Assembly: GCA_963727525.1 (NCBI GenBank)
Contig: CAVSGO010000007.1
Coordinates: 768,001-832,000 of the forward strand
DNA from: an uncultured bacterium
GTDB taxonomy: Bacteria; Krumholzibacteriota; Krumholzibacteriia; LZORAL124-64-63
Direction of reading: 5' to 3'
DNA: 64,000 nucleotides
The translations under genes were made by a program, and so were the position numbers. How positions within the stretch are numbered: the first letter of the stretch is position 1; each line of letters begins with the position of its first letter. Below the pieces are notes generated by a model. It saw only the letters and a program-made list of their open reading frames with translations. It had not been told where the DNA came from and searched no databases. Shown piece by piece: positions 44,174 to 50,792 of the stretch.

Positions 44174-44251
44174 GCGCGGCTCCCCCAAAAAAAGCGCTCA
44201 ACCTGCGCTCATGCTGAACGAACTATGGGGACGCCAGGCCGGACCGCGGCC

Positions 44252-45850
44252 ATGAGTGGCCAAAGCATCATCGCCTCGTCGGGGAGCGACTCCTTGTCGT
44301 CCAAGCTCAGCAACCTGAAGCAGGAAGCCTACCAGGCAGCGAAGCGGCGCAACTGGGTCGAGGCCATCTCGATCTACGAGCGTCTGCTCGACCTCGACAA
44401 GAATAATCCCGCGCTCCTCAACGAGCTCGGCGATATCTGCCTGAAGAACCAGGACCCGCCGAAGGCCGTGCGCCAGTTCCTCAATGCAGCGGCGAAGTAC
44501 AAGCAGAACGGGCTGCTCAACAACGCAGTCGCGGTGTACAAGAAGGTGCTGCGGCACGAGCCCGACAACATCAATGCCCACTGGTTCCTCGCGGAGATCC
44601 GCTCGAGCCAGGGGCTGGTCATGGAGGGCGAGGTCCACGCGGAACGCTTCCTTGCGGCCGCGGACGTGGTGGCGGGGGAGATCAAGGAGATCTTCCTGAA
44701 GCGCTGCGTGCAATTGCTCGCCCTCTACCCGGGCAGCCGCGCGATCCTCGAACGCATGCAGGGCGTCTTTCGCGTCTGGAACCTGCCGCTCGAGGAGGCG
44801 CGCACGGCCTGCCTGCTCGCGGTCGTCCTGCGGGGAGAAGGGGAGGCCAAGGCCGGTGCCGCCCTCGTGCAGCGCGCCCTGGAGTTCTGTCCCGAAGTGG
44901 CGAATTACATCGAGTACACGCGCTGGCAGACGGCCAGCGGCACCACGACCAATCCGGCGAACTTCGCCGATGTCAACACCGTGGAACTCGGAGCGGCCGA
45001 CGAACCCGTCGCGGCGCCTGAGCCGGTCGTACCCGAGGTACCGGTACGGCCCGAACCGACGACGATGAGCTGGGACATCGGCGCGGAACTGGAGCTGGAG
45101 CCGGAGCCTGTGCCGCCCCCGGCGACTCCGTCCGCGCTGCCGGTGGACGCTTTCGAGCAATTCCTCGCGGGCACGAGCGATACCGACGACGCCGTGACCA
45201 CGAACGCGCCCGGCCAGGACGCCGTTGGCGCCTTCGGCCGCGATTCCGACGACGGCCTGCCCCGAGACGACGACGGCTGCTTCGCCATCGACACCGACGA
45301 CACCGGGACGGAGACGAGCTTCGCCGATCTCATCGACGCGGCCACGGCCAGCATCGGCACGCCGGCGAAGTCTGCGGATCCACTGCAGAAGATCCTCGAC
45401 GATGTGGGGCCGGACAGCGGTGGCGACGCGGGTCAGGTCGACACCATCACCAGCGAGATCGGCCAGCACGTGGGTGGCGAAGGCGAGCAGGATGCCGAGG
45501 CGCTGTATCAGCAGGGGCTGGTCTACCTCGAGCTGGGCCTGCACGCCCAGGCGGCCGAGAGCTTCGCGGCGGCGTCGGGCAGCGCGCAGTACGCCCTGCG
45601 GGCGTGCGAGATGCTCGGCGTATCCCTCGAGCGCGACGGTCGCGACAGGGAGGCGCTCACCGCCTTCGAGCAGGGCCTGGCCGTAACGGGCGTCGAGCCC
45701 CGGTCGATCCTCGGCCTTCACTACCACGCGGCGCAGCTCCACGAGCGCCTCGGCAACGCCGTTCGCGCCCGGGCCCACTACGAGGAGATCCACGCGATCG
45801 ATCCCACCTTCCTCGACGTCGCCCAGCGCATCCAGCAGCTCGTGCCGTAG
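44252..45850 (+). CDS. Tetratricopeptide repeat protein with acidic linker (N- and C-terminal TPR clusters)
   Basis: TPR helices at both ends and a Pro/Glu/Asp-rich middle. Start uncertain (ATG 44225, ATG 44252, or TTG 44294 after GGGGAG). Confidence 0.85.
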   Translation: MSGQSIIASSGSDSLSSKLSNLKQEAYQAAKRRNWVEAISIYERLLDLDKNNPALLNELGDICLKNQDPPKAVRQFLNAAAKYKQNGLLNNAVAVYKKVLRHEPDNINAHWFLAEIRSSQGLVMEGEVHAERFLAAADVVAGEIKEIFLKRCVQLLALYPGSRAILERMQGVFRVWNLPLEEARTACLLAVVLRGEGEAKAGAALVQRALEFCPEVANYIEYTRWQTASGTTTNPANFADVNTVELGAADEPVAAPEPVVPEVPVRPEPTTMSWDIGAELELEPEPVPPPATPSALPVDAFEQFLAGTSDTDDAVTTNAPGQDAVGAFGRDSDDGLPRDDDGCFAIDTDDTGTETSFADLIDAATASIGTPAKSADPLQKILDDVGPDSGGDAGQVDTITSEIGQHVGGEGEQDAEALYQQGLVYLELGLHAQAAESFAAASGSAQYALRACEMLGVSLERDGRDREALTAFEQGLAVTGVEPRSILGLHYHAAQLHERLGNAVRARAHYEEIHAIDPTFLDVAQRIQQLVP

Positions 45851-45913
45851 CACGCTTCGCCGGTGTTTGCCGTAGCGCTTGCCACCGCCCCCACCTTTGC
45901 CTACGATCCGGTC

Positions 45914-48496
45914 ATGTCAGACACGCCCAGGCAATCGTCCTCGTTTTCCGGGGTCCGGCAGGCCGTCTTGCTGGGCCTTTTTACGGGTACGGGGTGCGGG
46001 CTCGGCGTCCTGCTGTCCGGGGTTCCCAACGTGGAACTGATCACCCTCACGTCGGTTCTCGCCGGCGTTGCGCTCGGTCCGGTCGGCGGGCTCGTCGCCG
46101 GCGCGCTGGCCGAGGCGGCGTACTCGCTCGCCAGTCCCTATGGCGTTGCCCTGCCGGTGCTGTTCGTGGCGCAGGTGGTCGGCATGGGCCTGGCCGGGCT
46201 CGTGGGCGGGCTGACGGCGCCACCGCTGCTGCGTTTGCTCGCGCAGCGCCGACGGCTCGTGACCGGCGTCCTGGCGGCGACCCTGGGAGCAGCGACGACC
46301 GTGGTCTTCGACCTCCTCACCAACCTGGCAATCGGTCTCGCCACCGACATCGACTTGCGCGTCGCTCTCGCGGGCGGCATCGTGTTCGCGTTGCTGCACG
46401 TCGGCGCGAACTCGCTCGTCTTCGGCGCGCTCTGGCCCCTGCTCGCGCCGCGGGTGCGGCGGTTGCGCGCGCCCAGTCTGCGCGTCCAGGTGGTGGCCTG
46501 GCTCGCACTCGGGGTGTTCGCTTGCGCGGCGCCGGGGCGGGCGCAGCTCGCGCCGGTGCTGGCCGACTCCGACACGGCGATCGCCGTCGTGGATACCGCG
46601 GCCGCGATCGCGGCGATGGACACGCTCGGCGCCGTCGCCGATACGACGAGGACCTTCGCGGGCGTCGACACGACGACGGCCGTGCCCGACACCGCGGCCA
46701 TCCTCGTCACCACGCCGCCCGCGGTGCGCACGGTGCGCGGCTGGCGCCGCCCGTTGTGGGAGCCGTTCTACTCGTCACTGCGCGAGGACCTCGCGCGGCG
46801 GTCGCAGTGGCTGGCCGTCGCCGACGGCGGCTTCGGCGCGCGGGTCTTCCTCGCCGGCGAACCCGGCACGTCATTTTTCCCCACGGTGCTGCGGGACGGT
46901 TTGCCGGTGCTCGTGGGGCATCGCTTCCTCGACGACGTCGAGAGCGTGCCCATCACCGGCACGCGGCTCGGCGCCACGACCTTCGGCCTCGACGGCTGGG
47001 GCGGTACCGACGGCGTCGTGAGGCGCAACGAAGCCGACCTGCGCCCCGATGCAGCCTTCACCGATACGCGCTGGCACGCAGGTTCGCAGCAAGATCTCTT
47101 CCGCAGCGTCCACCTGCTGACGGCCGTGGCGCCGTGGCGCGTGGGGCTGGATATCGAGGAGCACCTGAACGACGAGGCCTACGATTTCCGTACGCCTGGC
47201 GAGACCCGCTATTCCGGACTTGCTGATGCGGAGGTGGCCGGCTTCCCGGGGCGGGCGAAGTTCCGCAGCGGGCGCGGCGTGCTACGGCGCTATCTCGACT
47301 TGCAGACCAGCCTCACCGTCTCGGTCGAGGATGTGCGCAAGCTGAAGAACGCGTTGCCGGCCTTCGATGCGACCGAGCAGGATCTCTGGCGCCACACCTT
47401 CGCGGTCGACTGGCGTGAGCCGGGGTTGCGGGCGGCCGCGTACACCATCGACGAAGCAGTCGACTGGAATCGCCCTGCCAGCAGCGGCAACCCGCCGCCC
47501 GCGCGCAAGCTCGAGGGCGGGCGTGAGGGAATCCTGCTCACGCTCGGCGACGGTCTGTTGAGATTCACCGCTGAGCGCTGGACCCTCGCGGATACCGGCG
47601 CCGACACGAGCTGGGCGCCCGACGACGCGGGACCGGTGGACGGCAGCGGTGCGTCGACCAACCTCGGCGCGGCACGCGCATGGACCGTGGGCCCGGCGCG
47701 GCTGGCGGCGACGGCGGCGGCGCGCTGGGACGACGGCGCCGGCTGGGCGCCGGAAGCCGCGGTGCACGTCGCGTCGGCGGACTCGCTGCCGTGGTGGACG
47801 GTGTCGCTCGAGCGCGGCGGTCGGGCGCCGCGCAGTGACGAACGGTTGACGGCCTGGCGTTTCGCGGCGCCGGAGCGCATCGACACGGTGGTGCTGCCAG
47901 GACACGGTCTCGCGCGGGAACGCACGTGGCGCGGGGTGGCGGCGCTGCAGCGGCGCGTGGCTGGCCTCGATGTTGCCTTGTCGGCCGCCTATCGCCGTCT
48001 CGAAGACGGCATCGGCTGGCGGGCGCAGGACGGCACCCGCACCGGACGCTGGGCCAACGGGCTCGACCTGCGGTCGCACACGATACGCGCCGGTCTCAGC
48101 CGAGAGGGTCGCTTCCTCGGCTGGGTCCGCGTGCAGGCTGACGCGGCCTGGCGCGGCTGGACCCGGGACGGCGACGTGCGCATCGCACTACCGCCGCGCC
48201 AGGACTGGCAGGTGGGCGTGCTGTGGGAGAATCACTTCTTCGACGAGGACGGCATCCTGCAGGTGGGATGGTTCCTCGACCATCGCGGCGAGATGGACGA
48301 CCCGTGGTATCTCGCGCGCCGGATCGTGCTGCCGGCAACGACGCAGCAGGACCTCGTCCTCGGCTTCCGGCTCGTAGGCACCAACCTCGGCATCGCCTTG
48401 CTCAATCTCACCGACCAGCGTGTGCTCACGAGCGCGGGCTCGCTCACGGATGGACGCCAGATGCGCTGGCGCCTGCACTGGACCTTCCTCTTCTAG
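45914..48496 (+). CDS. Fusion: ECF-type S-component (6 TM) + internal signal peptide + TonB-receptor-like outer-membrane barrel
   Basis: Single uninterrupted ORF. N-terminal GVPNVELIT and six hydrophobic helices, then RVRRLRAPSLRVQVVAWLALGVFACAAPGRA-Q, plug-like segment (VLRDGLPV, GGTDGVV), and amphipathic strands ending RWRLHWTFLF. Confidence 0.75.
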   Translation: MSDTPRQSSSFSGVRQAVLLGLFTGTGCGLGVLLSGVPNVELITLTSVLAGVALGPVGGLVAGALAEAAYSLASPYGVALPVLFVAQVVGMGLAGLVGGLTAPPLLRLLAQRRRLVTGVLAATLGAATTVVFDLLTNLAIGLATDIDLRVALAGGIVFALLHVGANSLVFGALWPLLAPRVRRLRAPSLRVQVVAWLALGVFACAAPGRAQLAPVLADSDTAIAVVDTAAAIAAMDTLGAVADTTRTFAGVDTTTAVPDTAAILVTTPPAVRTVRGWRRPLWEPFYSSLREDLARRSQWLAVADGGFGARVFLAGEPGTSFFPTVLRDGLPVLVGHRFLDDVESVPITGTRLGATTFGLDGWGGTDGVVRRNEADLRPDAAFTDTRWHAGSQQDLFRSVHLLTAVAPWRVGLDIEEHLNDEAYDFRTPGETRYSGLADAEVAGFPGRAKFRSGRGVLRRYLDLQTSLTVSVEDVRKLKNALPAFDATEQDLWRHTFAVDWREPGLRAAAYTIDEAVDWNRPASSGNPPPARKLEGGREGILLTLGDGLLRFTAERWTLADTGADTSWAPDDAGPVDGSGASTNLGAARAWTVGPARLAATAAARWDDGAGWAPEAAVHVASADSLPWWTVSLERGGRAPRSDERLTAWRFAAPERIDTVVLPGHGLARERTWRGVAALQRRVAGLDVALSAAYRRLEDGIGWRAQDGTRTGRWANGLDLRSHTIRAGLSREGRFLGWVRVQADAAWRGWTRDGDVRIALPPRQDWQVGVLWENHFFDEDGILQVGWFLDHRGEMDDPWYLARRIVLPATTQQDLVLGFRLVGTNLGIALLNLTDQRVLTSAGSLTDGRQMRWRLHWTFLF

Positions 48497-48530
48497 CTTG
48501 CCCCTGGCACGCCGCCACGTGGGGACGGTC

Positions 48531-48974
48531 ATGACGCGGCGTGAGGCCGCAGCCCTGCTCGTGGCAGCCGCGCTCATCCTCGCCGGGCGCGGGCTGCGGC
48601 ACTGGCTGCTCGTGGGGCCCGACGGAGCCTGGCGAGATCCCGAATGGCTCGCTACGGCCCTGCCGCCGCTGGAGTCGGAGTCACCCGACCCCGAGCCCGC
48701 GCGTGCTGTCCTCATGGGCCCCCTGGCCGTCAACACCTGCCCTGCGGAGTCCCTCGTCGCCTTACCGGGCGTCGGACCCGTGCTCGCCGGGCGCATCGCA
48801 ACCGCCCGCGAGCAGGGCGTGCGTTTTGCAAACCTCGACGACCTCCAGCAGATCAAGGGCATTGGCCCGCGCCTCGCCGCGAAACTCGCGCCCTGGGTCG
48901 TATTCGGCCCGTTCGCGGCCACCGACACGTGCCGGGCGCAGCCTGCAATGCCACCCCCCGCCCGGGTCCCGTGA
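48531..48974 (+). CDS. comEA: ComEA-like helix-hairpin-helix DNA-binding membrane protein
   Basis: N-terminal MTRRE+TM, VNTCPAESLVALPGVGPVLAGRI and FANLDDLQQIKGIGPR HhH motifs. Confidence 0.85.
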   Translation: MTRREAAALLVAAALILAGRGLRHWLLVGPDGAWRDPEWLATALPPLESESPDPEPARAVLMGPLAVNTCPAESLVALPGVGPVLAGRIATAREQGVRFANLDDLQQIKGIGPRLAAKLAPWVVFGPFAATDTCRAQPAMPPPARVP

Positions 48975-49094
48975 TTGCTGGGATTCTGCCCTCAAGGCCA
49001 CGGCGTATTGCGACGATATGAGGCCTGATCGGGTTGCCGTAGGAACGGTCAGCCACGACCACGCCTCATGTGTCCCGGAGTGGAGTACCCGCCC

Positions 49095-50792
49095 ATGAAC
49101 ACTGGCACCGCCGTGAACGTCAGGGACAAGATCGCCAATCGCCTGCTCGAGGCCGGGCTCGTCGACCAGGCCCAGCTCGCGCAGGCGATCGAGCAGCAGA
49201 AGAAGGACGGCGGCACGCTCGGCCAGATCCTCGTGCGCATCGGCGCCGTGGACGAGGCGAGGTACACGGAGTTCCTCGGCAAGGTCTATAATCTGCCGGT
49301 GGTCGATCTCGACAAGCTGCCTGTGGCCGACGACTGCATTGCGCTCATTCCCGCCGACGTGGCCGCGAAGTTCCAGGTGCTGCCGGTGCGGCGTCAGGGC
49401 CGCGTGCTCACCGTCGCCATGGCGAATCCGAGCAACATCTTCGCGATCGACGACATCAAGTTCATCACCAGCCTCGACGTGCGACCGGTGGTGGCGAGCG
49501 AGTTGGCTCTCAAGAAGGCCATCGACAAGTACTACCAGCCCACCGATTCGCTGTCTTCGATCATGGAAGGCATCGAGGACGATATCGAGATCGTCGAGGA
49601 GAGCGACGAGGACGATCTCGGCAACAACGACGCGCAGAACGCGCCGGTGGTGAAGCTCGTCAACACGCTGCTCGCCGAAGCGGTGAAGATTGGCGCCAGC
49701 GATATCCACATCGAACCGTATGAGCGCAGCATGCGCGTGCGCTACCGCATCGACGGCGTGTTGCAGGAAGTGATGGAGCCGCCGATCAAGCTGAAGAACG
49801 CCATCATCAGCCGCCTGAAGATCATGTCCGAGCTGGACATCGCCGAGCGCCGCATCCCGCAGGATGGCCGCATCAAGATCAAGATCGGCGACAAGAAGGT
49901 GGACCTGCGTGTCTCCACCTTGCCCTGCATCTTCGGCGAGAAGGTCGTGATGCGTATCCTCGACAAGGGGAACCTCACCCTCGACCTCGCCAGCTTCGGC
50001 ATGGAAGACAAGGCGCTGCGCGACGTCAACGAGGCGATCGCCAAGCCCTACGGCATGGTGCTCGTCACGGGCCCCACAGGCTCCGGCAAGACGACCACCC
50101 TGTACTCCTGCCTCTCGCGCGTGAACAACATCGACGTCAACATCATGACGGCCGAGGACCCCGTGGAATACAACCTTGACGGCATCAACCAGGTGCAGGT
50201 GCGCGACGAGGTGGGGCTCACCTTCGCCGCCGCGCTCAAGGCCTTCCTGCGGCAGGACCCGAACATCGTGATGGTCGGCGAGATCCGCGATCTCGAGACG
50301 GGCTCCATCGCGGTGAAGGCGGCGCTTACCGGTCACCTCGTGTTTTCGACGCTGCACACCAACGACGCGCCGGCCACCGTGAACCGTATGGTCGACATGG
50401 GCATCGAGCCGTTCCTCGTGGCGTCGTCAACCAACATCATCATGGCCCAGCGCCTCGTGCGCCGGATCTGCAAGGGTTGTCGGGAAGAAGATGCGGTGCC
50501 CCCGGAGGCGCTGTCGGACATCGGCCTCGCCCCGGGCACCAAGGTCTTTAAGGGCAAGGGCTGCGAGAAGTGCAAGGGCTCGGGCTACTCGGGTCGGCAA
50601 GGGCTCTACGAAGTGATGCCCATCACCTCGCGTTTGCGCGAGCTGATCCTCGACCGAGCCTCGACCGCCGAGCTGCGCAAGCAGGCCATCGCGGACGGCA
50701 TGCTCACGCTCCGTCAGGATGGGCTGAAGAAGATCGAACGAGGTATCACGACCATCGCAGAGGTCCTGCGCGAGACCACGGTGCAGGACTAG
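49095..50792 (+). CDS. pilB: Type IV pilus assembly ATPase
   Basis: ASDIHIEP, LDIAERRIPQDGRI, GPTGSGKTTT, EDPVE, LRQDPNIVMVGEIRD, TLHTN, tetracysteine zinc motif. Confidence 0.96.
   Translation: MNTGTAVNVRDKIANRLLEAGLVDQAQLAQAIEQQKKDGGTLGQILVRIGAVDEARYTEFLGKVYNLPVVDLDKLPVADDCIALIPADVAAKFQVLPVRRQGRVLTVAMANPSNIFAIDDIKFITSLDVRPVVASELALKKAIDKYYQPTDSLSSIMEGIEDDIEIVEESDEDDLGNNDAQNAPVVKLVNTLLAEAVKIGASDIHIEPYERSMRVRYRIDGVLQEVMEPPIKLKNAIISRLKIMSELDIAERRIPQDGRIKIKIGDKKVDLRVSTLPCIFGEKVVMRILDKGNLTLDLASFGMEDKALRDVNEAIAKPYGMVLVTGPTGSGKTTTLYSCLSRVNNIDVNIMTAEDPVEYNLDGINQVQVRDEVGLTFAAALKAFLRQDPNIVMVGEIRDLETGSIAVKAALTGHLVFSTLHTNDAPATVNRMVDMGIEPFLVASSTNIIMAQRLVRRICKGCREEDAVPPEALSDIGLAPGTKVFKGKGCEKCKGSGYSGRQGLYEVMPITSRLRELILDRASTAELRKQAIADGMLTLRQDGLKKIERGITTIAEVLRETTVQD

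Follow-up and report, generated by a model that had tools for sequence, protein, structure and literature searches.

An ECF S-component-like domain and a TonB-dependent-transporter-like barrel joined in one predicted precursor by a putative internal signal peptide

We describe here an open reading frame (ORF) that joins parts of two kinds of transporter, one of the inner and one of the outer membrane. It lies in a 64,000-nucleotide stretch of DNA, called the window throughout, from an uncultured bacterium of the Krumholzibacteriota (assembly GCA_963727525.1, contig CAVSGO010000007.1, positions 768,001 to 832,000 of the forward strand). The encoded protein is predicted to consist of a domain of the type that energy-coupling factor (ECF) transporters use as S-component, followed by a putative internal signal peptide, a disordered linker and the plug and β-barrel of a TonB-dependent transporter (TBDT). 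An original prediction, made from the letters of the window, read this ORF as a possible polyprotein serving two membranes, and the present analysis supports that reading: probably, though by no means with certainty, one precursor is cut by signal peptidase I into the inner-membrane and the outer-membrane transporters of one uptake route. The frame was found uninterrupted over its 860 residues, as first reported; an in-frame GTG at 45863 is an alternative start, which gives 877 residues up to the same stop at 48496. The gene is present in a single copy in the genome (4.66 Mb, 96.7% complete). Its parts, in window coordinates, are the following.

45914..48496, + strand: whole ORF, 860 amino acid residues from an ATG, plus stop
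45914..46471, + strand: ECF S-component-like domain, residues 1-186, six helices, assigned by fold and profile
46451..46489, + strand: basic segment RVRRLRAPSLRVQ, residues 180-192, which closes the last S-component helix and doubles as n-region of the putative signal peptide
46490..46543, + strand: hydrophobic core and c-region VVAWLALGVFACAAPGRA, residues 193-210, with a predicted signal peptidase I site after A210
46544..46741, + strand: disordered linker, residues 211-276, containing six D-T-hydrophobic motifs, at the expected position of a TonB box
46742..47056, + strand: plug-like segment, residues 277 to ~381, beginning at the conserved W-R-R-P-L-W-E-P-F
47057..48493, + strand: predicted β-barrel, residues ~382-860, ending in W-T-F-L-F, assigned by full-length model and profile comparison

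Results

The N-terminal domain

For the N-terminal domain we used an alignment of 105 sequences, named A2, which comprises residues 8-186 of the window protein, 35 translations of loci and 69 free homologues. The model built from A2 has a predicted local distance difference test score (pLDDT) of 97.3. By superposition (VIA), FolT is its best match (7nnt_C; Z 16.1, root mean square deviation 2.7, 161 of 169 residues), followed by ThiT, RibU, PanT, BioY, HmpT, NikM and CbiM. The top 22 rows are all S-components, and the first protein of another kind in this ranking is Lnt, at Z 9. In a Foldseek search S-components also lead, but with weak E-values (best 0.021). The predicted structure shows residues 1-186 in the six-helix fold of ECF S-components, in keeping with the earlier assignment.

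When the sequences of the PDB were searched with the A2 profile, the sole significant chain was 6fnp_A (182 residues; E 1.7e-10, 173 of 179 positions), and no other solved S-component was among the matches listed at E <= 10. BtuM, whose structure is presumably in the PDB, is likewise absent from the solved chains listed at that threshold. A full-length profile returned nothing useful from the PDB sequences. Entry 6FNP is the ECF-CbrT vitamin B12 transporter (PMC5997447), and we infer from the size of the 182-residue chain that it is CbrT itself.

Family HMMs (hidden Markov models) agree with the fold in part. The expected match to an S-component family exists but is weak and falls below the Pfam cut-off: PF12822 (ECF_trnsprt) matches residues 30-170 at E 6.3e-4, with 20.2 bits against a cut-off of 30.7, and PF07155 reaches 15 bits against 26.7. 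NCBIfam gives a weak match to the FolT family. Among 58 fused homologues, which form the alignment named A1 and are the sample for the counts out of 58 given below, 20 match an S-component Pfam family at E <= 0.01, and the relatives P0109 and P0113 exceed the Pfam threshold.

The invariant residues in the first half of the A1 family include G21, G25, E41, Q87, T136, N137 and H162. The PNVE motif is present, with P38 and E41 invariant or nearly so, and the polar intramembrane residues E41, Q87, H162 and N166 are invariant in both fused and free forms. In S-components an AxxxA motif of helix 1 docks on EcfT (PMC11109136). In CbrT this motif reads A-L-L-T-A; at the aligned positions the present family has an invariant G21-L-F-x-G25, which is small-xxx-small but not Ala and might still permit docking on EcfT.

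The C-terminal plug and barrel

The full-length AlphaFold model, built on A1, has a pLDDT of 86.3 and a predicted template modelling (pTM) score of 0.80. It consists of long helices to residue 182, a low-confidence helix [191-201], a disordered segment [201-271] and a confident β-rich part [290-860]; the pLDDT is mostly >90 over the last of these and <50 in the internal helix and the linker. A Foldseek search of the PDB with this model gave 201 chains at E <= 0.001, which, among the matches listed, are TBDTs only. The best is BtuB (1nqg; E 2.6e-22, template modelling score 0.77 on the target, 594 columns over plug and barrel), a rank that may reflect size because BtuB is the smallest solved TBDT. 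Further matches include PfeA, Cir, FepA and FrpB. For residues 277-860 (~585 residues) the model thus shows the plug-and-barrel fold of TBDTs, in which an N-terminal plug sits within a barrel of 22 strands, as had been proposed. Residues W282, D340, R531, W771 and E772 are invariant in this half.

The barrel of the window protein has diverged past Pfam detection. An HMM search had been expected to find plug or barrel families; it finds Plug in the positional orthologues described below and no Pfam family in this part of the window protein. The aromatic C-terminus W-T-F-L-F was correctly read in the window protein, but Phe as the last residue is not a feature of the family, in which the chain ends in Y (27 proteins), H (12), Q (10), F (6), R (2) or K (1). 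The conserved part of the C-terminus is W-x-F, at positions -5 and -3.

The junction

The last helix of the S-component domain ends in a conserved L-x-P-R-L-x-x-L-x-R, present in 58 of the 58 aligned proteins. Past the end of this helix the sequence is variable, but the same build is kept in all 58: the net charge is +1 to +6, a hydrophobic core comes next, and positions -3 and -1 hold small residues. The uncharged stretch at the junction, counted together with the small-residue c-region, is 19 residues long at the median. The window protein has A-P-G-R-A at the site, followed by Q211, so that the layout first described, an internal signal peptide and then Q, is present. Residues 180-210 look like a Sec signal peptide. 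Since S-components have both ends in the cytoplasm, as is established for the solved members, the basic segment RVRRLRAPSLRVQ would stay inside and the next segment would cross outward in the manner of a signal peptide.

The pattern small-x-small-Q was observed in 39 of 58 junctions, compared with 17.4 +/- 3.1 in shuffled junctions (maximum 27 in 1000 shuffles). The shuffle is the only fair control, because the script that picks the site prefers Q and its own tally at +1 (Q in 38 of 58) is biased. Two other types of signal were considered and rejected. In the window protein a Cys follows V-F-A, as in a lipoprotein signal, but Cys is not conserved at the junction; the twin Arg of a Tat signal is not conserved across the fused homologues.

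The linker has 15-94 residues, with a median of 56, and is followed by the conserved G-W-x-R-P-L-W-x-P-F. Motifs of the form D-(S/T)-hydrophobic, which we take to resemble Ton boxes, occur at 5.0 per 100 residues in the linkers and at 0.19 elsewhere. At least two copies are found in 49 of 58 linkers, and the window protein has six. Relatives in which the two parts are separate genes have a single A-D-S-L-x motif just before the plug, at the place expected of a TonB box, and forms that consist of the barrel alone lack the linker.

A different reading of the junction is that the protein is not cleaved. The hydrophobic segment would then be a seventh transmembrane anchor, and the linker would span the periplasm for a direct hand-over of substrate. 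With a median of 56 residues the linker could span the periplasm if extended; it is disordered in the model, and cleavage is itself a prediction. However, some members have linkers of just 15, 26 or 27 residues, and an uncharged stretch of the median length would make a short anchor. The small-x-small-Q pattern that is enriched here would be superfluous in an anchor, and in the two-gene and barrel-only relatives a normal signal peptide at the N-terminus directs export of the barrel. To our knowledge, no β-barrel assembled by the β-barrel assembly machinery (BAM) stays joined to a polytopic inner-membrane domain. The short linkers, the low confidence of the internal helix and the retention of a cleavage-type motif weaken the case for such a protein, and we consider it unlikely.

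It could also be supposed that an internal start, for example GTG 46454, yields the barrel precursor alone. This codon stands at the beginning of the basic segment, and two-gene relatives use a coupled restart at that point. The S-part of the fused gene has no stop, however, and all ribosomes from upstream would read through. An internal start would moreover add to cleavage rather than replace it, and we regard it as highly improbable as the explanation of this gene.

Recurrence of the fusion

The fusion recurs widely, which answers the original question of whether it is found in related genomes. A word-based protein search returned 63 proteins, one of which is the 877-residue version from the window; for 57 of the other 62, the match extends over 98% or more of the query, with identities of 35-54%. 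In the source records these homologues are named 'hypothetical protein' or 'ECF transporter S component', or carry the label of a Krumholzibacteriia metagenome-assembled genome (MAG). A scan of species genomes gave 70 loci, mostly labelled Krumholzibacteriota/Krumholzibacteriia, 'uncultured Fibrobacteraceae', 'bacterium' or 'uncultured bacterium', with one label of Gemmatimonadales and one fragment labelled Gammaproteobacteria. A profile scan of the phylum found matches in 166 of 208 genomes, and in 86 of the 90 genomes of the window's family when G000 is excluded. The match is one uninterrupted stretch, from profile position <=9 to >=858, in at least 45 of 91 genomes of this family, G000 included; in most of the other family genomes it is interrupted, either where a contig ends or at the variable linker, which divides it into two.

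A HMMER search with A1 against 1.84 billion representatives gave 635 matches at E <= 0.001, 413 at 1e-10 and 84 at 1e-30. These are of four kinds: fused full-length proteins, barrels alone, free S-component-like proteins, many of them of 170-215 residues, and 17 proteins of 766-902 residues that match the profile in their N-terminal part. Five of the last kind have a second matched stretch. Six of the 17 were scanned against Pfam, and two exceed the cut-offs in both halves: P0109 with PF12822 (33.2), Plug (33.6) and TonB_dep_Rec (60.9), and P0111 with PF07155, Plug and PF12822. The junctions of the 17 have mostly the same basic, hydrophobic and small-residue build. The sources of this second fused group are candidate division KSB1 and unclassified or Bacteroidota-labelled MAGs, and one of its proteins bears the automatic Joint Genome Institute (JGI) name 'outer membrane cobalamin receptor/uncharacterized membrane protein'. 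The fusion is thus found in at least two deeply diverged groups.

These counts bear on the possibility that the ORF is an artefact or a pseudogene, produced by an assembly error or a recently lost stop in this one genome. Distant relatives do have a stop at the equivalent place, near 46450 of the window, and G092 is frameshifted at the junction. The stop occurs in distant relatives alone, where it belongs to a two-gene state. The frame is intact in the family genomes counted above and in the 57 near-full-length proteins, and many residues are invariant in both halves. A one-off lost stop is unlikely because the fused frame is kept in so many family genomes, and, short of a single error common to all these assemblies, we give an artefact of any kind practically no weight. 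In G092, a close relative (L081, G092:C2:344700-348300), the fused gene is spread over two frames, which change within the signal-peptide or linker region; an error in sequencing or a break of recent date may be the cause.

Two-gene and barrel-only forms at the same locus

Outside the window's family, the phylum scan gave matches in the N-terminal part only, at E 1e-17 to 1e-43, and several of these matches carry an in-frame stop inside. Sixteen such places were fetched for inspection. One of them, in G183, holds a fused form of 810 residues. In 13 of 13 split loci, from five families, a free S gene is followed at -23 to +15 nucleotides by an ORF of 585-680 residues with an N-terminal signal peptide. 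The first candidate start of this ORF overlaps the stop of the S gene by one base in 8 of the 13. Of ten downstream ORFs, six match Plug above cut-off and four have no Pfam match; in a comparison with hhalign, the barrels of the fused family align with the split TBDTs at a probability of 98.5 (E 3.9e-15, 535 columns). The two parts therefore exist as separate adjacent genes in relatives, an alternative raised in the original prediction, and the barrel gene opens with a signal peptide where the fused gene has an internal one.

The order amidohydrolase, tetratricopeptide repeat (TPR) protein, pair or fusion, PilB, PilT, PilC and kinase is found in 7 of 8 larger stretches around the split loci. 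Around the fused gene, the TPR gene is upstream in 39 of 43 loci, the amidohydrolase gene in 43 of 43, and PilB is downstream in 48 of 54. Because the gene order is the same, the split pairs are positional orthologues of the fused gene, and the two-gene state is the ancestral-looking one. In four of the 13 split loci (L083-L086, in G209, G049, G216 and G213) the pair lies in the same frame, with one TGA or TAG and 1-5 codons between the parts. This share is about the chance expectation. As these pairs are separated by a single stop, one mutation would suffice for fusion.

The barrel also occurs alone, in at least about 20 genomes from seven genera of the window's family in the phylum scan. Barrel-only proteins have 577-639 residues, and their own signal peptide ends a few residues before L-W-x-P-F (P0080, P0085, P0086). 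In five barrel-only loci the amidohydrolase gene is directly upstream, and both the TPR gene and the S-part are missing. In another, L047, the S-part alone has been lost; the TPR gene is kept, and what is left of helix 1 leads directly into the signal peptide. A whole-genome search found the N-terminal domain in none of five barrel-only genomes, whose completeness is not stated, and in four of four fused genomes used as a control. In a FastTree tree of 64 barrel parts, with a midpoint root only and with two more free barrels left out as the motif cut failed, six free barrels form one clade (support 0.999) on long branches.

The same loci can be read in a further way, in which the precursor is cleaved but its N-terminal part is not the transporter of the barrel's substrate; it could be a sensor, a scaffold, an export helper or the product of a neighbour fused by chance. 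S-component folds are also found in receptors and in MreD (PMC11109136), barrel-only genomes do without any N-terminal domain, the same-frame pairs are one mutation away from fusion, and the locus lies among unrelated housekeeping and pilus genes whose synteny extends through the phylum. On the other side, the S and TBDT genes are adjacent in five families with stop and start mostly overlapping, and their fusion is seen in two or more groups that diverged deeply. The polar intramembrane residues are invariant whether the domain is fused or free, its nearest solved relative is a real vitamin S-component, and there is the precedent of BtuM, which was predicted from its co-localisation with btuB (PMC6072759). 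We think it improbable that the two parts are functionally unrelated in this manner.

Genome context

The fused gene belongs to a one-strand block at 36272-56344 of the window, which encodes Omp85, LigA, a helicase, an amidohydrolase, a TPR protein, the fused protein, a ComEA-like protein, PilB, PilT, PilC, a PAS histidine kinase and another ORF. Its conserved upstream neighbour is listed here.

44225..45850, + strand: TPR protein gene, 541 residues, 63 nucleotides upstream of the ORF

The TPR protein has an acidic low-complexity middle, and no signal peptide is evident in it. Downstream, ~570 bp separate the fused gene from pilB and contain the ComEA-like ORF (48420-48974, + strand; HHH_3, 50.7 bits), which has a hydrophobic N-terminal segment. 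A 185-residue ORF in another frame (48541-49098) has no Pfam match. A gap of 550-810 bp precedes PilB in 59 of 59 loci with a PilB match. The block is syntenic across the sampled families of the class; a functional tie of the fused gene to the downstream pilus and ComEA genes was considered and rejected, the synteny from LigA to PilC being read as conserved gene order.

The genome has two signal peptidase I genes and 13 matches to TonB_C, and an Omp85 gene is inside the window. The fused gene is the only S-component-like sequence of the genome. No ECF A or T gene adjoins the ORF and no Rfam family is found in the window, in agreement with what was first noted. Nor was a convincing ECF module found in the genome, in which only a weak CbiQ-like ORF was seen and EcfA as such was not searched for.

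The substrate

A corrinoid is the leading guess for the substrate, although a doubtful one. There are two weak hints in its favour: CbrT is the only sequence relative of known structure for the N-terminal domain, and BtuB is the best structural match of the barrel. The only cobalamin riboswitch of the genome (C7:266054-266255, + strand, locus L106, 81.7 bits) precedes genes for a canonical TBDT of 715 residues, a FlgD_ig-domain protein of 462 residues and a cobalamin adenosyltransferase of the PduO type. This operon contains no inner-membrane transporter, and no FecCD permease above cut-off was found in the genome; an inner-membrane B12 carrier is thus otherwise missing. If the substrate is a corrinoid, the fused gene would supply the missing inner-membrane step beside a riboswitch-controlled BtuB-like receptor.

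Four observations count against a corrinoid. The TBDT linked to the riboswitch differs from the fused gene. The first rank of BtuB may be owed to its small size. The absence of Rfam families, and with it of any riboswitch, extends from the window to 8 fused and 14 split loci. Finally, the family has no invariant Cys, unlike BtuM, which is described as ligating cobalt via Cys.

Discussion

In the mechanism that we favour, the S-component domain would insert into the inner membrane so that its two ends face the cytoplasm, and the hydrophobic segment after it would serve as an internal signal sequence, with Sec threading the remaining chain across. Signal peptidase I would cut between A210 and Q211, so that the released part would begin with Q211 and the S-component would retain the signal segment as a seventh helix. 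The released plug and barrel would pass through the periplasm to BAM and from there into the outer membrane. The TonB-energised barrel would then take one scarce small molecule across the outer membrane, and the S-component, which would probably work as a solitary one, would take it across the inner membrane. The fusion probably arose from a translationally coupled pair of S gene and TBDT gene such as is extant in sister families.

Several points weigh against this account. The window protein is under the Pfam gathering threshold for every S-component family, and neither Plug, TonB_dep_Rec nor any other Pfam family matches its last 650 residues. Both domain assignments rest on the profiles of relatives and on predicted structure, and to this may be added the possible effect of size on the rank of BtuB. 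Cleavage by signal peptidase I after A210 is predicted from the pattern of residues at a junction where the site-picking script itself leans towards Q. The barrel persists in genomes without the S-part, so that strict functional coupling is not universal. The genome also contains one CbiQ/EcfT-like ORF (31.9 bits), located between the asd and transaldolase genes, so that an ECF module may yet be present. Since this sole candidate is weak and has no ATPase beside it, the solitary mode is the likelier one; such a mode has been described for BtuM and some BioY (PMC11109136, PMC6072759).

Taken more broadly, the data may reflect a two-membrane micronutrient route, possibly for corrinoids, in which a CbrT-like solitary S-component and a small TBDT work without an ATP-binding cassette (ABC) or ECF motor across Krumholzibacteriota, KSB1 and related uncultured phyla, and in which signal peptidase I splits one precursor into matched partners for the two membranes. 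We put this wider proposal forward tentatively, with a little less than even confidence. The fusion acts as a Rosetta stone, which ties a large unannotated S-component-like family of ~180 residues to small TBDTs (413 representatives matched by the full-length profile at E <= 1e-10) and suggests a testable function for genes that several uncultured phyla carry under the label 'hypothetical'. Should cleavage take place as we propose, an outer-membrane β-barrel would be made as the tail of a polytopic inner-membrane protein. This would bear on how Sec, signal peptidase and BAM handle internal signal sequences, on how cells match the amounts of transporters in two membranes, and on how solitary S-components work without an ECF motor.

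Comparison with known systems

The N-terminal domain resembles CbrT from Lactobacillus delbrueckii (6FNP, PMC5997447) in its six-helix fold and in the P-N-V that follows helix 1. CbrT, however, is a free Gram-positive protein of ~182 residues that docks on EcfAA'T, while the present domain, from a diderm, forms a fusion with an outer-membrane protein. BtuM and BtuB follow the same logic of a TBDT and an S-component without ECF module, and their genes are co-localised; in Proteobacteria they are separate genes, while here the two parts are fused (PMC6072759).

With BtuB and other TBDTs (PF07715 and PF00593), the C-terminal part has ~594 columns of plug and barrel in common, and its predicted mature length of ~585 residues is that of the smallest TBDTs. 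TBDTs have one N-terminal TonB box, whereas in the present family a variable linker carries as many as six D-(S/T)-hydrophobic motifs, and the barrel is synthesised behind a polytopic membrane domain. The closest precedent for such processing is reportedly provided by FbcH, the cytochrome b/c1 precursor of Bradyrhizobium, in which a polytopic part and an internal signal sequence precede an exported part that is released by signal peptidase. Both products of FbcH are said to stay in the same inner-membrane complex, whereas the second product here would reach a different membrane.

Full-text searches of the literature, covering articles and not their supplements, returned no description of this fusion. 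The words 'barrel', 'outer membrane' and 'TonB' do not occur in the main text of a survey of the S-component fold (PMC11109136). Both parts are of known kinds, and the notion that a TBDT can work together with a solitary S-component is not new either, BtuB with BtuM being the example. What is new is the pair of S gene and TBDT gene as a conserved unit in Krumholzibacteriota and their relatives, and the fusion of this pair into a single precursor with a putative internal signal peptide.

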